Below, piece by piece: positions 25,473-63,878 of a stretch of DNA of 64,000 bases. The position numbers and the translations under genes were made by a program. Numbering within the stretch: position 1 is the stretch's first letter; the number at the start of each line of letters is the position of its first letter. The DNA comes from Zootoca vivipara (lineage: Eukaryota), in the NCBI RefSeq assembly GCF_963506605.1, contig NC_083277.1:75888001-75952000 (forward strand). The letters run 5' to 3'. The notes beneath the pieces were generated by a model. The model made no database searches and was not told where the DNA came from. It saw only the letters and a program-made list of their open reading frames with translations.

Positions 25473-28400
25473 TCAAACATTAAAAGCTTCCCTAAACAGG
25501 GCTGCCTTGAGATGCCTTCTAAAGGTCTGGTAATTGTTGTTCTCTTTGACCTCTAGTGGGAGGGCATTCCACAGGGTGGGTGCCACTACCGAGAAGGCCC
25601 TCTGCCTGGTTCCCTGTAACTTGGCTTCTCGTAGTGAGGGAACCGCCAGAAGGCCCTCGGAGCTGGACCTCAGTGTCCGGGCAGAACGATGGGGGTGGAG
25701 ACGCTCCTTCAGGTATACCGGACCGAGGCCGTTTAGGGCTTTAAAGGTCAACACCAACACTTTGAATTGTGCTCGGAAACGTACTGGGAGCCAATGTAGG
25801 TCTTTCAGGACCGGTGTTATGTGGTCTCGGCGGCCGCTCCCAGTCACCAGTCTAGCTGCCGCATTCTGGATTAGTTGTAGTTTCCGGGTCACCTTCAAAG
25901 GTAGCCCCACGTAGAGCGCATTGCAGTAGTCCAAGCGAGAGATAACTAGAGCATGCACCACTCTGGAGAGACAGTCAGTGGGCAGGTAGGGACTCAGCCT
26001 GCGTACCAGATGGAGCTGATAAACAGCTGTCTTGGACACAGAGTTGACCTGTGCCTCCATGGACAGCTGTGAGTCTAAGATGACTCCCAGGCTGCGCACC
26101 TGGTCTTTCAGGGGCACAGTTACCCCATTCAGGACCAGGGAGTCCTCCACACCCGCCCGCCTCCTGTCCCCCACAAACAGTACTTCTGTCTTGTCAGGAT
26201 TCAATCTCAATCTGTTAGCCGCCATCCATCCTCCAACCGCCTCCAAGCACTCACACAGGACCTTCACTGCCTTCACTGGTTCTGATTTAAAAGAGAGGTA
26301 GAGCTGGGTATCATCAGCATACTGATGGACACCCAGCCCAAACCCCCTGATGATCTCTCCCAGCGGCTGCATATAGATGTTAAAAAGCATGGGGGAGAGG
26401 ACAGAACCCTGAGGCACCCCACAAGTGAGAGCCCAGGGGTCTGAACACTCATCCCCCACCACCACTTTCTGAACACGGCCCAGGAGGAAGGAGCGGAACC
26501 ACTGCATGACAGTGCCCCCAGCTCCCAAACCCTCTAGACGATCCAGAAGGATGTTATGGTCGATGGTGTCAAAAGCCGCTGAGAGATCCAGCAGAACAAG
26601 GAAACAGCTCTTACCTTTGTCCCTAGCCCGCCGGAGATCATCGACCAGTGCGACCAAGGCAGTTTCAGTCCCATGATGAGGCCTGAATCCTGACTGGAAG
26701 GGATCCAAATGGTCCGCTTCTTCCAGGCGTGCCTGAAGTTGTTCAGCAACCACTCGCTCAACCACCTTGCCCAAGAATGGAAGATTTGAGACTGGGCGAT
26801 AGTTGGCCATATTGGCCGGATCTAAAGATGGTTTTTTAAGAAGCGGTTTAATAACCGCCTCTTTCAGCGGGTCTGGGAAGGCTCCTTCATGGAGAGAGCA
26901 TTTACCAACCCGCGAAGCCCATCGCCCAGCCCTTCCTGGCTAGCTTTTATAAGCCAGGATGGGCAAGGATCAAGGAGACAGGCGGTTGGTTTCACTCGTC
27001 GAAGCAGCCTGTCCACATCCTCGGAGGTAACAGATTGAAATTGATCCCACAAAACTTGACTAGACAGGACTCTAGCACTCCCCTGCCCCGGCCCTGCCCC
27101 CACGGTGGAGTCTACCTCTTTCCGAATCTGAGCGACTTTATCTGCAAAAAACTTTGCAAAATCATTGCAGGAGATCATGTGGCCCGTACTGGGCCCGGAT
27201 GGAGCAGGTGGTTCCGCTAAATTGCGAACCACCTGGAAGAGTCTCCTGCTGCTGTTTTCTGCAGATGCGATGGAGACGGTGAAGAAGGTCCTCTTCGCCG
27301 TCGCCATTGCCACTTGGTAGGCTCGAAGTTGAGCTCTAGCCCGTGTCCGGTCTGATTCAAAATGAGTTTTCCGCCACCGGCGCTCTAGCCGTCTCAACGA
27401 CTGTTTCATCGCCCTCAGCGCCGGGGAAAACCACGGGGCTGTCCGGGCTCCATGCAATCTGAGAGGGCGCTTCGGAGCCAGACAGTCAATAGCGCTGGTT
27501 AACTCCGCATTCCAGCGGGCCACCAGGGAATCAGCTGAAAGGCCATCGACATGGGATAAAACATCCCCTACCACTCTCTGGAAGCCAATTGGATCCATTA
27601 AGTAGCGGGGGCGGACCATCCGAATCGGTCCCACCTCCCTGCAGAGGGGAAGGGTTGCGGAGAAGTCCAGTTGCACCAGAAAGTGATCTGACCATGGCAC
27701 TTCTTTTGTTTCGCTTTTACTTAATGTCAGATCACCAACATCCATAGAGGTGAACACCAAGTCCAAGGCATGTCCGCGGCTATGAGTTGGGCCAGACTTA
27801 TTCAGGGACAGCCCCATGGTGGCCATGCTTTCCACGAAGTCCCGAGCGGCTCCTTGTAAGGTCGTGTCGGCATGGATGTTAAAATCCCCTAAGACAACCA
27901 AGCTAGGTGTCTCCAGGAGCACATCCGACACGACCTGAAGCAGCTCGGGCAGGGAATCCTTGGTGCAGCGGGGAGGTCGGTACACCAAAAGGAATCCTGT
28001 ACTGCCCCTATTGCCCAACTTCCAGAACATGCACTCAGAAAACTCCGTCTTACCAATAGGACGCCTGGTGCAAACTAATGACTTCCTAAAAATCACTGCA
28101 ACCCCCCCTCCCCGCCCAGATGGCCTGGGTTGCTGTGCATAAGAGAAACCTGGTGGACAAGCAGCGCCAAGAACGGGCCCATCGGCTTCATCCAACCAGG
28201 TCTCTGTCACACATGCCAGGTCAAATCTTCCATCCACAATCAGGTCGTGAATGGCAGTGGTCTTATTCATCATCGACCTGGCATTGCACAGCAGCACCTT
28301 CAGGTCATGTGGGTATCCCTTGCTGATTCCAATATCCGTCCGGTCAGGACCAGACCCGGAGGCAGGGATAGTCCTCAGACAACGACTAAGTCTGCCTCCT

Positions 28401-28504
28401 CGGTAATGACATGGTCTGGTCTTAGCGTAACTCCTCCTCCTACCCGTGACCACTGAGATCGGTTGTCCCAGTGCATCACCCCCTGTGGAATCTGCCCCAG
28501 CCAT
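25473..28504 (-). pseudogene. LINE ORF2 (endonuclease + reverse transcriptase), 1010 aa if a single 1-nt deletion near 26897 is restored
   Basis: ORFs 28615-26864 and 26810-25473 join as VNA[S]LHEGAFPDPLKEAVIKPLLKKPSLDPANMANYRPVSNL by adding one base; no other stops. Confidence 0.9.
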
Positions 28505-28984
28505 TTTGCTTGCTGGGACCCCCTCCCGAGCAGCCCTGACCCCTCCCCTTAAAAACAAAATAAAACCTCTGTAAAAACAGCAAAGAACAGAACAAAAGAA
28601 AAACACAAAAAACACAATAAAACAATAAAACCAAAAACAATAAAAATTACAAATACACTAAAATTTAACAGATTCCCACACCCGACTAAAAATCCCTCGC
28701 TAAAACCTATGTAAATCAAAAAATACAGTAAAACAATACAAAGACAGAAAATTACAAACTAAAATTGACCCCTCCCCTTAAAATCAAATTTAAAACCAAT
28801 ACAGAAAACAAACTAATGCAATAAAACAATACAAACAAAGACAGAAAATTACAAACTAAAATTAACCCCTCCCCTTAAAATCGAATTTAAAACCAATACA
28901 GAAAACAAACTAACAGACTAAACGATAAACAAAAACCAAAAACAATAAAAGTTACAAACACATCAGAATTACAAGAAAAGCAGC

Positions 28985-30370
28985 AGCGGCACTGTTTCAG
29001 GCCTCCTAGGAGCCTTAAAGCTGTGGTAGAGTATGGGTCCCGCCCCCGGGCCCAAGGTGGAAGTGGGCCTCAGGGGGAGCAGTCCTTCCAGTACTCACAG
29101 CAGCACTGATGTTCCAGGCCTCCCAGGAGCCTTAAAAGCTGTGGTGGAGTGGGGGACCCGCCCCAAGCCCCAGGTGGAAGTGGGCTTCAGGGGGAGCAGT
29201 CCTCCCAAACACTCCCTGGCAGAGCAGCAGCAGCAGCAATGTTCCAGGCCTCCCAGGAGCCTTAAAAGCTGTGGTGGAGTGGGGGACCCGCCCCAAGCCC
29301 CAGGTGGAAGTGGGCTTCAGGGGGAGCAGTCCTCCCAAACACTCCCTGGCAGAGCAGCAGCAGCAGCAATGTTCCCGGCCTCCCAGGAGCCTTAAAAGCT
29401 GTGGTGGAGTGGGGGACCCGCCCCAAGCCCAAGGTGGAAGTGGGCTTCAGGGGGAGCAGTCCTTCCAGTACTCACAGCAGCACTGATGTTCCAGGCCTCC
29501 CAGGAGCCTTAAAAGCTGTGGTGGAGTGGGGGACCCGCCCCAAGCCCCAGGTGGAAGTGGGATTCAGGGGGAGCAGTCCTCCCAAACACTCCCTGGCAGA
29601 GCAGCAGCAGCAGCAATGTTCCAGGCCTCCCAGGAGCCTTAAAAGCTGTGGTGGAGTGGGGGACCCGCCCCAAGCCCCAGGTGGAAGTGGGCTTCAGGGG
29701 GAGCAGTCCTCCCAAACACTCCCTGGCAGAGCAGCAGCAGCAGCAATGTTCCAGGCCTCCCAGGAGCCTTAAAAGCTGTGGTGGAGTGGGGGACCCGCCC
29801 CAAGCCCCAGGTGGAAGTGGGCTTCAGGGGGAGCAGTCCTCCCAAACACTCCCTGGCAGAGCAGCAGCAGCAGCAATGTTCCCGGCCTCCCAGGAGCCTT
29901 AAAAGCTGTGGTGGAGTGGGGGACCCGCCCCAAGCCCAAGGTGGAAGTGGGCTTCAGGGGGAGCAGTCCTTCCAGTACTCACAGCAGCACTGATGTTCCA
30001 GGCCTCCCAGGAGCCTTAAAAGCTGTGGTGGAGTGGGGGACCCGCCCCAAGCCCCAGGTGGAAGTGGGATTCAGGGGGAGCAGTCCTCCCAAACACTCCC
30101 TGGCAGAGCAGCAGCAGCAGCAATGTTCCAGGCCTCCCAGGAGCCTTAAAAGCTGTGGTGGAGTGGGGGACCCGCCCCAAGCCCCAGGTGGAAGTGGGCT
30201 TCAGGGGGAGCAGTCCTCCCAAACACTCCCTGGCAGAGCAGCAGCAGCAGCAATGTTCCAGGCCTCCCAGGAGCCTTAAAAGCTGTGGTGGAGTGGGGGA
30301 CCCGCCCCAAGCCCCAGGTGGAAGTGGGCTTCAGGGGGAGCAGTCCTCCCAAACACTCCCTGGCAGAGCA
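28985..30370. repeat. Tandem array of 130-bp (A) and 117-bp (B) GC-rich units with 507-bp higher-order period
   Basis: Unit starts near 28997(B, diverged), 29113(A), 29243(A), 29373(B), 29490(A), 29620(A), 29750(A), 29880(B), 29997(A), 30127(A), 30257(A, partial). Confidence 0.95.
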
Positions 30371-34072: not shown

Positions 34073-35555
34073 ATCGTGAGCTCCATTATGAAAAGGCCTG
34101 TGTTGTGCCCTCCTTGAGGATAATGGAAAGCTATGCAGCGCAACATGAGTGAATAGTTTTGCAGGGTGTGGGTTCACTTGCAGCTGACAAGACATATATT
34201 CACAAGAGGACTGAAGTTCTTTTGTTCTCCTGATGTTTGTATGGAAATGTGCACTGTGTGTCTGAACAACCCACCTTACTCGCCATCCTCATCAGTCAGC
34301 ACTTTGGAATTCACCTTGCGGCCAGTGCTGCTGATAGCTTGCTCCCTGTGGCAAGAATTTGCCTTATAAAAACCTGGAGCTTTGCGGTGAAGCTACCTGA
34401 GTCAGATTGTGACTCACAGCAAAGCTTATGTGGCTCATGCTTGTTACTGATGCAGAATCTCTGCATGCTAACTATAGCGCTGAAATGAAGCACCTCTTCC
34501 TCGGCAGATGGCTGCCAGGGTATGGAGTCAACCTCTGTTCAGCTTCTAGCTGCAAACTGACTGGCCACATACCCATTGCAAAAAAAGAGGAAATAAACAA
34601 AATCCACCATCCAAAAATTAGGACAAAGGAGGACTCTGATTTGCACAAAAATTGCATTTGCTAACTTATTTCTATAGATGCAAGTGTAGAAATAAATTAC
34701 TATAACTTAAATAGAAATACAATACATTTCTCCATTGAGGGGAAGGCAGTGACTCATTTGGCTGCTCAATCAGCTGGCCAGCTGCTAACTGTTGATGGCC
34801 AACTTCATGGCCCCCCCGATCTCCCTTCTTATAGTTCTTTGTCTTCAAACTGAACTTCAGCAAAGGAATTCAATTAGAGGACTGTCATTTGTGCTACTTA
34901 CCAAATTCTCACTTGGACGGTCTTGCACATAGGAGCAGTGGTGCATTGCTTAGACCTAAATGACTGGATATCTGGGTAAGGCCAAGGCTTTACATGACAA
35001 GCAAAGTTTCCTCATGAAACTGGCTTCTGTATTGCAAAGTGCCCTCAAGTATAAAGAGGGGACTTGTGTATCCAGACAGTTTTTGGGATGTGCCAGGGAG
35101 TTCTGTGGCAACTGCTTATCCCTGACTTGTGGCCACAATGTATCCCAGAGTGTTTGGAGATGCTCTCCATCCCATAATACATACTAACCCTGTCCCCCTC
35201 CCCCATGGTAGAACAATGGCTTCTGTTGTTCCCTGGGACACTCAGTAGGCCCTTGGTTGCAATTAGGACCGCATCACATCCTCTCTTTATGGCAAATGCA
35301 TCTTATAAATTATGAATCTTGGCTTACAGGAAGCCTTGGGGCTGTGCACTTCCAGTATCCTCATAATGACACCGAAGAAAGAGATAAAGATAGATTATCA
35401 GGATATATCCAACTCCAAAGGGCGTGCTCTGAGCTTAGTGGGCCTTGAGGCTGGAAGATTTTAGAGAAACCTGAGTGAGTGATCTTGCCTAATGGCTTGG
35501 TGCCGTTCTCTCTCGTTCTTCTTTTTAACTAAATCCAAGCACCAGGAATGGCTAT

Positions 35556-35972
35556 TGTGAGGGACAAGGGATACAGGGAAGTCCCTCCCATCTTAAGTTC
35601 CAGCCCATCCCCAAGCGCTGGAGAGAGTAAGGAGAGCTCTGCCTCCAGCGGAGAGTCAGGAAGTGGTGTCCGAGGCTCAGGCAAGGTTGTGGAGCCCATG
35701 CCTCAGGTGGGGCAGGAAGTTGGGCGCACGGGGGGAAGGCCAATCCCCCCAACTCCCGAATTGCGATGCAAACGTAGGGGGAAGAGGTTGGGTCTCCCAA
35801 AGCTTTTGTGCTGGAAGAAAACGCGCCAATCGCCATTCGGAGGTTCTGACACCTCACCTTAAGCATGTATATAGATCGTTCTGACCACTGTAAATAATCA
35901 GCACTTAATAAAAGCCTAAAAAGACTATGCTGGAGTCGTTACTCTAGAGTAGCCACATCAGGCCCTCTGACA
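35556..35972 (+). repeat. 5' LTR
   Basis: TGTGAGGGAC...CTCTGACA; AATAAA at 35907-35912; differs from the 3' LTR at 2 positions by eye. Confidence 0.95.
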
Positions 35973-36013
35973 GCAACCTCCGAATCTTTTTTTGGCTACT
36001 TTGGAGTGCCGCG

Positions 36014-36787
36014 ATGAGCGCGCAAGAGGCTGAGCATTGGAGGCTGGAGGCCGAAGCGGTGAAGCAGGAGATACGGAACCTGACAGCGCAGGCCCAGCAG
36101 CAATTGCATGCCGCTCAGGAGGAAGCGCGCGGGGCGCAGGAGGAGCTGAACAGGCTGGCACTGCCGGAGGACATGAGGGTGCACCCAGTGTTTCATAGAT
36201 CGCTGCTGTCGCCGTACAGAGAAAGTACCAGGTTCAGGGACAGCGATCAGCCTCCAGAGGGAGGAGGGGAAAGGGGAGAGACCCAGCAACTCAATGAGGC
36301 AACTGAGATTTTAGATTCAAGGAGAGGGGTGAGAGGGCTGGAGTACCTCATGGCATGGGAGGACACTCCGCCGTCCCACAATGAGTGGATACCGGCCACG
36401 GAAGTACAAGAGGAATTTTTAGTGGAAGAGTTCCATGCCCTTTTCCCCCACAGGCCCAAGCCCTGGCACATGGAAAGGGAGGGAGAGGGGGAGGAAGGGA
36501 GGAAGGGATCGCAGGCAGCAGCTCTCCATGGAGATGGGAAGCGGAATTTGAGGATACGGAAGAAGAGGTGTGGGTTTCACCGAGGTCGACTACGTCAGAG
36601 GCAGGAGAGGACTGGCAGAACATTTTTACTCCCACCAGTTCTGACGCCACAGACTTTTTGGGATTCCCGTCTTCTCAGGGGGAGGGGGAAAGATCGCAGG
36701 ATTGGGGAAAATTTTTTACACCCACAGGCTCTGATGCCACAGACTTCTTGGGGTTTCACTCGTCCCCAGCAAGCAGAGAGCCCCTAG
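36014..36787 (+). CDS. Retroelement ORF: coiled-coil (probable Gag N-terminus) fused to integrase C-terminal tail and chromodomain; C-terminal part probably out of its ancestral frame
   Basis: ATG 42 nt after the LTR; heptad-rich aa 1-46; RLALPEDMRVHPVFHRSLLSPY (integrase tail); ILDSRR..LEYLMAWED..SHNEWIP..V..FH (chromodomain, ~36293-36448). Confidence 0.7.
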   Translation: MSAQEAEHWRLEAEAVKQEIRNLTAQAQQQLHAAQEEARGAQEELNRLALPEDMRVHPVFHRSLLSPYRESTRFRDSDQPPEGGGERGETQQLNEATEILDSRRGVRGLEYLMAWEDTPPSHNEWIPATEVQEEFLVEEFHALFPHRPKPWHMEREGEGEEGRKGSQAAALHGDGKRNLRIRKKRCGFHRGRLRQRQERTGRTFLLPPVLTPQTFWDSRLLRGRGKDRRIGENFLHPQALMPQTSWGFTRPQQAESP

Positions 36788-36821
36788 GGAGGGGGGGAGA
36801 GGAGCCTGGGAGGGGGGTGGA

Positions 36822-37238
36822 TGTGAGGGACAAGGGATACAGGGAAGTCCCTCCCATCTTAAGTTCCAGCCCATCCCCAAGCGCTGGAGAGAGTAAGGAG
36901 AGCTCTGCCTCCAGCGGAGAGTCAGGAAGTGGTGTCCGAGGCTCAGGCAAGGTTGTGGAGCCCATGCCTCAGGTGGGGCAGGAAGTTGGGCGCACGGGGG
37001 GAAGGCCAATCCCCCCAACTCCCGAATTGCGACGCAAATGTAGGGGGAAGAGGTTGGGTCTCCCAAAGCTTTTGTGCTGGAAGAAAACGCGCCAATCGCC
37101 ATTCGGAGGTTCTGACACCTCACCTTAAGCATGTATATAGATCGTTCTGACCACTGTAAATAATCAGCACTTAATAAAAGCCTAAAAAGACTATGCTGGA
37201 GTCGTTACTCTAGAGTAGCCACATCAGGCCCTCTGACA
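36822..37238 (+). repeat. 3' LTR
   Basis: Direct repeat of 35556-35972, offset 1266 bp. Confidence 0.95.
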
Positions 37239-37708
37239 GCTATCCTGTGCTGGATAGAAATAAAGGTTCGATAGAGTGGTCCAGGGATGAGGAAGGCACA
37301 AGAAAGTGTAATGCTCCCACTTCCACTCAGCCTAAATCAAGCACTTCTAAGTCCCATTAAACTCCCCCCATGTTAAGTATGTTTGTGGTTCTCCCATGTT
37401 GAAATCAATGGGACTTGAAAGGGTGAAGCGCTTCATTTTCGCTCAATGAGGCCCCAACTTTGTAACAATTCTTGCTTCATAAAATGCATGTCACAATCCC
37501 ATTAGGTGGGATACGTACCCTGTCTTCTTTTCCTTTTTGTAAAAGCAGTTGCCTGCTTGCGGATCTCTGGTGTGGAATAGTGTGTGATGCTTGAATCTTA
37601 AGGCTGCATCAGCCCACCTGTTCTAAGAATACTGAATGTATTATTGCCTTAATGCTTTGGGCAACAAGAACAAAAGAGAGTAGAATTGGGGAAATAAGGC
37701 ATCTCTTG

Positions 37709-41630: not shown

Positions 41631-63878
<22,248 letters not shown>

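Follow-up and report, generated by a model that had tools for sequence, protein, structure and literature searches.

A recent, internally deleted Ty3/gypsy chromovirus copy in the window, by which we mean the whole 64,000-nucleotide stretch of Zootoca vivipara DNA analyzed here, carries behind its integrase chromodomain two copies of a peptide that are under purifying selection and that have the layout of the TND-interacting motif (TIM) of host proteins. Based on sequence, selection and the literature, there are good grounds to expect that this peptide binds a TND protein, probably LEDGF/HRP2, and on balance we lean towards the view that the two copies bind the LEDGF/HRP2 TND/IBD and tether integration to H3K36-methylated transcribed chromatin. 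The lacertid clade to which the element belongs likely gained such a LEDGF/HRP2-binding tether while its histone-mark reader decayed.

Structure of the element

The copy (1,683 bp, 35556-37238, plus strand, as are all of its features below) lies within a host intron, and is bounded by the target-site duplication GCTAT at 35551-35555, with the same 5-mer at 37239-37243. The LTRs (417 nt, 35556-35972 and 36822-37238) begin with TG and end with CA; since they differ at only 2 positions and the 5-bp duplication is intact, the insertion is recent. The interior of 849 nt consists of about 45 gag codons (36014-36158) joined to the end of the integrase, which comprises an SH3 remnant, the chromodomain and an acidic tail. 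About 4 kb is missing at the junction (36151-36158), where 8 nt are common to both sides, and element positions 1-603 and 596-1683 align to separate parts of one full-length sister copy. Because the gag start is joined to the integrase end while full-length relatives measure 5-6.5 kb, the window copy is an internally deleted Ty3/gypsy chromovirus; it is non-autonomous, and therefore no integrase is made from it. A second internally deleted copy (L026:164-2539) has nearly the same gag-side breakpoint and a different integrase-side breakpoint.

In one full-length relative the gag frame spans 418 codons and the pol frame 1,379, and in the pol of a related full-length copy, which gag precedes, Pfam identified protease, RT, RNase H, integrase, SH3 and chromodomain. 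The LTRs with TG...CA ends, the 5-bp duplication, gag followed by the PR-RT-RH-IN order and the C-terminal integrase chromodomain are those of a chromovirus, the domain order being read on the related full-length copy, as the window copy retains the two ends only. In the window, the end of the SH3-like (GPY/F) module (36152-36220) was matched as a Pfam SH3_Tf2-1 fragment at E 1e-3, which is below the cut-off, and the chromodomain (36293-36463) as PF00385 at E 5.8e-6. A purine-rich span with a frameshift (36461-36515) separates the chromodomain from the motifs, and a third unit with an aromatic anchor and an acidic linker but no FxGF (36529-36573) precedes motif 1 (36610-36675) and motif 2 (36700-36765). 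Judging from its position and pattern, this third unit is likely a decayed motif copy; the older relatives L193 and L198 have three FxGF units in series. The purine-rich tract at 36786-36821, directly before the 3' LTR, is from its sequence the putative polypurine tract. The pol frame then continues about 100 codons into the 3' LTR (36822-37128, with the stop at 37126-37128), where pN/pS between subfamilies is 0.27, pointing to some selection, and where a basic, NLS-like stretch (37030-37059) and L-[LW]-C-W-K/R are kept, as they are in relatives.

Reading frame and selection on the repeat

The initial annotation had described a repeat of 90-nt period in the frame 36385-37128, and both of its 22-codon peptides were found exactly as quoted, at 36610-36675 and 36700-36765. 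Its count of nine synonymous codon differences was also reproduced: in this frame the copies agree in 8 codons, while 9 show synonymous and 5 non-synonymous differences, and the other two forward frames have 1 synonymous change each. Third positions account for 13 of the 18 base differences between the 66-nt copies, and random placement of the changes kept at least 17 of the 22 residues in 9 of 100,000 trials (P ~9e-5). We also calculated pN/pS by pairwise comparison of natural copies from four subfamilies, the regions being short and the values rough. Motif 1 had ratios of 0.00, 0.24 and 0.30, and motif 2 ratios of 0.19 and 0.27, which is similar to the 0.11-0.31 of the chromodomain; the ratio was 0.86, 0.94 and 0.49 for the 8-codon spacer and 0.20-0.59 for the linker ahead of motif 1. 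The motif copies are thus under purifying selection, and a protein motif is favored over a DNA or RNA signal because silent sites vary while the anchor residues stay.

In the window copy the chromodomain (PF00385) and the motifs lie in different frames, which had been ascribed to a 1-nt shift in the purine run. The placement is correct, since 36461-36515 is one base shorter in the window than in 24 of the 26 sisters measured (54 nt in comparison to 55 nt). A genome search gave 1,388 candidates, of which 40 were scored and the best 30 kept as sister loci. That the chromodomain and the FxGF repeats form one ORF in the family was borne out by 26 of these best 30 loci, in which the chromodomain and both FLGF copies share a stop-free frame; this frame extends to the integrase core in 16 of the 30, and of the remaining loci one has a single motif copy in frame and three, including the window, have none. 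A 26-nt pattern taken from motif 1 had 175 exact matches in the genome, in comparison to 0 for the control pattern.

Comparison with the published TIM

In the published description, a TIM begins with a helix containing F/V/L/I, continues through 8-16 residues of acidic, Ser/Thr-rich linker and may end in FxGF, which all known LEDGF/HRP2 TND partners have, and the LEDGF/HRP2 readers bind H3K36me2/3 (PMC9987994). A motif consensus D/E-x-E-x-F-x-G-F is given in PMC8022399. The HRP2-binding DPF3a peptide has a hydrophobic-F pair, a 10-residue Ser/Thr/acidic linker and FHGF, and its phosphorylation at position -2 strengthens HRP2 binding (PMC7337902); FxGF is also found in fly JIL-1 (PMC6877644).

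The claim under study concerned the FxGF motif, and the likeness turned out to exceed it: the match to the TIM is better than first proposed because the upstream hydrophobic anchor and the linker are also conserved. The motif unit has the full TIM layout of aromatic-x-x-[IV]F, an acidic Ser/Thr linker of 8-9 residues and FxGF; in motif 1 these are W-x-x-IF, a 9-residue Ser/Thr/Asp linker and FLGF at 36655-36666, and in motif 2 FLGF lies at 36745-36756. Across 15 tabulated instances the linker has 8-9 residues with 2-7 Asp/Glu, 1-5 Ser/Thr and at most one basic residue. Position -4 before FxGF is Asp/Glu in all 15, while position -2 is E in 7, T in 3, S in 2, G in 2 and D in 1. FxGF is the most conserved part of the motif, being invariant in 8 of 8 aligned own-genome instances, and the relative P0074 has an STFHGF core in common with DPF3a. 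The layout pattern did not pick up P0006-P0011 and P0074, which have Ser/Thr-rich linkers, and shuffle P values are optimistic because the pattern was fitted to these same sequences.

AlphaFold on a sister copy folded the chromodomain (pLDDT ~90 or more) and left the motif tail without secondary structure (pLDDT ~50, from a shallow 9-row alignment), so that the integrase tail is predicted to be disordered, as a linear motif requires. Several of these sequence results count against the tether reading. The window-family copies have Thr at -2, where the consensus has Glu or Ser, and their linkers, with two acidic residues each, are the least acidic among the tabulated copies. The residue pattern of the upstream anchor is conserved, but the unbound AlphaFold model has no helix there. 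Finally, a PDB search with the motif profile recovered no host TIM chain, although the PDB contains such chains. That search and a PDB search with the tail sequence both gave chance hits only, and ESM Atlas with a relative's tail, at a best score of 0.80, was uninformative.

Distribution among relatives

The tether proposal would be weakened if FxGF varied among related elements, and the motif was found after the chromodomain in 13 of the 13 closest relatives, at 34-58% identity, with one to three copies among close relatives. These came from a database search with 26 hits, in which 11 of the 13 closest were labelled Podarcis muralis, 12 distant hits had no FxGF after the chromodomain and one was a chimeric gene model. 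A profile search of 1.84 billion representatives added 147 new proteins, 97 with tails of at least 40 residues, and only 4 of the 147 had FxGF after the chromodomain, three of them labelled Podarcis; a third search gave one further Podarcis carrier. Among the hits examined that were labelled viper, garter snake, worm lizard, frog or fish, there was no FxGF tail. There is no named carrier outside lacertids in these databases, where mobile-element proteins are thinly sampled. In the lizard's own genome, a young sister family with LTRs 99.8-100% identical has an acidic tail without FxGF, and two further families have no FxGF, either in the tail or by absence of a tail. Acidity by itself is thus widespread, and the motif is specific to one group.

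In a tree that includes the chromodomain, made as a quick tree only, all carriers form one branch (SH-aLRT 100). When the chromodomain was left out, together with L195 and L198, which were too short, the carriers were supported at 88/98, below the star threshold, and the broken, long-branch copy L193 fell outside. The carrier branch adjoins motif-less sister families in both trees, and the motif likely had one origin.

Two observations were made on motif-less elements. The loci L200-L203 and L215-L222 represent a second young chromovirus family in which the chromodomain cage is intact and the acidic tail is dotted with Trp but has no FxGF; one copy of this family lies beside an exon that we take to be protocadherin-like. 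In P0093, P0095, P0097, P0139 and other fish-like hits the integrase ends in a short basic R/G/P-rich tail. Such tails, which resemble AT-hooks, were found in 12 of the 49 motif-less rows that have tails.

The chromodomain cage

Group I chromodomains have three cage aromatics, and group II chromodomains, which in 2013 were known only from plants, have lost the first and third (PMC3605345). The cage positions of the window chromodomain are N, W and T in comparison to Y, W and Y in group I, the third position being taken from alignment to HP1 and the first from position matching. All three aromatics were present in 0 of 17 motif carriers in comparison to 56 of 73 motif-less rows, a count in which several exceptions were mis-anchored by the pattern and 4 rows were unmatched. 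The motif-less sister families in the same genome retain the cage. Cage loss with motif gain is what the replacement of one targeting module by another should look like, and it is a single observation, because it is one event in one clade. Taken together with relatives P0001-P0014, the segment 36293-36463 represents a clade of vertebrate chromoviruses whose chromodomain is of a group II-like type; one subgroup of the clade is without the cage Trp as well.

Host gene, candidate host partner and insertion sites

The element lies on the sense strand of the first intron, about 52 kb long, of a host gene that runs on the plus strand of C2 from some 11 kb before the window (L207:7231) as far as window position 63878. 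The CpG-island exon at that upstream distance of about 11 kb matches in phase the exon near 41714, and a PH-domain exon comes next; we take the gene to be AFAP1L1. ESM Atlas with a host exon was uninformative. A genome search for candidate host partners found the HRP2 IBD exon, which matches solved IBDs, and did not find LEDGF/PSIP1, which such an exon-wise search can miss.

The position of the element in or near a gene had been read as fitting a tether to transcribed chromatin. A large part of a vertebrate genome is genic, and one intronic copy therefore says little on targeting. For 60 of the 78 young copies, we compared 10 kb of flanking sequence with 57 random stretches (60 less three on C18, a contig that was oversampled) and with 20 flanks of the cage-intact family; the comparisons of strand skew and ORF length excluded 2 insertion flanks, 2 random stretches and 1 family-E flank in which little DNA was unmasked. 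The flanks did not differ in GC or CpG, in repeat content, or in strand skew or ORF length (all P >0.12). These proxies are weak and blurred by post-insertion selection, and the lack of a difference neither supports nor refutes targeting to gene bodies.

Copies are spread over 18 chromosomes. The 78 young copies are uneven among them (over-represented on C10, C13, C16 and C17, under-represented on C2, C5 and C6), with a chi-square P of 0.003 in which the length of C18 was set too high. Among the first 100 exact motif 1 matches listed, 20 lie in a 16-Mb stretch of C9 (43-59 Mb), and the best DNA matches also cluster on the 9.3-Mb contig C18; these clusters could reflect a region that is rich in repeats or recombines little. 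In three RNA runs from a related organism there were 12, 9 and 127 reads, which come from sister copies because nearly all are 90-99% alike, and are uninformative for the window copy.

Proposed mechanism and alternative explanations

If the peptide is a TIM mimic, the anchoring helix would come from the upstream W-x-x-[IV]F and FxGF would fill the second pocket, while the negative charge that the Ser/Thr linker lacks would come from its phosphorylation. Thr at -2 in the window family fits such a phospho-switch, though it is not the published residue. The tandem copies would add avidity, and the tether would replace the reading of methyl-lysine by the chromodomain. In its widest form the proposal is that the clade swapped targeting modules, the chromodomain decaying while a phospho-tunable TIM mimic was gained and then multiplied, which would make it a lentivirus-independent route to LEDGF/HRP2 and the first retrotransposon integrase with that tether; we regard this as possible and put it forward tentatively. 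The window copy itself is a deleted, frameshifted passenger that is unable to use the motif.

The motif could be a true TIM whose TND binding serves chromatin retention or integration efficiency, or which prefers IWS1, TFIIS, ELOA, MED26 or PNUTS. The spread of copies over 18 chromosomes with no flank signature agrees with such a role, as does the third unit, which is without FxGF like many TIMs (PMC9987994); we nevertheless consider it unlikely, as FxGF is both the most conserved part of the motif and specific to LEDGF/HRP2, the readers of H3K36me2/3. Rather improbable is a different linear motif for a non-TND partner, for example an ATG8-family LIR, which the acidic W-x-x-[IV] half fits. PH domains and transport factors are further binders of acidic aromatic motifs; the sequence acid-W-x-x-I/V recurs in most second and third copies, and the motif profile recovered no host TIM. 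However, this reading leaves the fixed spacing of 8-9 residues and the invariant FxGF unexplained, and first copies often begin with F instead of W. The first copy directly follows the chromodomain in several families, which would suit a motif that packs against the chromodomain or integrase of the element itself, or that makes contacts in an integrase multimer; given that copy number (1-3) and distance to the chromodomain vary freely and that AlphaFold leaves the tail unstructured (pLDDT ~50, on the 9-row alignment), this seems very improbable. That the repeat acts as DNA or RNA, or arose by neutral duplication close to the polypurine tract, with the peptide incidental, is hardly credible and largely refuted by the codon tests, for although cis signals are often found in the region where the repeat lies, 20-200 nt ahead of the 3' LTR region, silent changes have accumulated with the residues kept, both between the two copies and between subfamilies.

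Relation to known systems

The tether reading can be set against several known systems. Host TIMs (MLL1, JPO2/CDCA7L, POGZ, IWS1, DPF3a and fly JIL-1) share with the lizard motif a disordered context, a hydrophobic anchor ending in F, an acidic Ser/Thr linker, FxGF and serial copies (PMC9987994, PMC7337902, PMC6877644). They differ in being host proteins with measured binding, whereas the lizard motif belongs to the integrase of a mobile element and is known from its sequence; POGZ is transposase-derived but domesticated, unlike the active lizard element. Lentiviral integrases tethered by LEDGF/HRP2 would share with it the host domain and the outcome, namely transcribed genes (PMC9987994). In the HIV integrase the contact is made by a site already formed on the folded catalytic core (PMC10854676), in contrast to the unstructured motif of the lizard element.

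In Ty1, a short C-terminal integrase motif binds the host factor AC40, as the lizard tail may bind its own, though motif and partner differ. Ty5-Sir4 and MLV-BET are likewise short C-terminal integrase motifs binding a host chromatin or transcription factor. No TIM is known among these three motifs, nor is any of them known to come after a chromodomain. Integrase tails with short host-binding motifs are already known, as is the lentiviral use of LEDGF; what would be new is a retrotransposon mimicking a linear-motif ligand of LEDGF/HRP2. Judged by title or the start of the abstract, the literature searched, which did not extend to most subscription papers or the primary TIM papers, showed no retrotransposon or active transposon with a TIM, and on the same basis no paper naming FxGF placed it on a mobile element; the string "transpos" is absent from the accessible text of PMC9987994. 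If the tether is real, chromatin marked by H3K36 methylation would have been reached twice, by different molecular routes, and vertebrate chromoviruses would acquire a testable targeting mechanism.

With chromoviruses (Sushi-like vertebrate elements, group I, and plant group II) the lizard element shares gag/PR-RT-RH-IN-chromodomain, TG...CA LTRs and the 5-bp duplication. The loss of the first and third cage aromatics is the same in plant group II, and the pol frame enters the 3' LTR in plant CRM elements as well (PMC3605345). In fish and frog chromovirus relatives, by comparison, the cage is mostly intact and the tail is without FxGF. The cage-intact sister family active in the same genome provides a natural control, as it gives two young families, one with and one without the motif.

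Elsewhere in the window, a LINE-like element lies on the minus strand at 25476-30370, where we take its frames to be endonuclease and RT-like, and beside it is a tandem array of about 10 copies with a 130-nt period.
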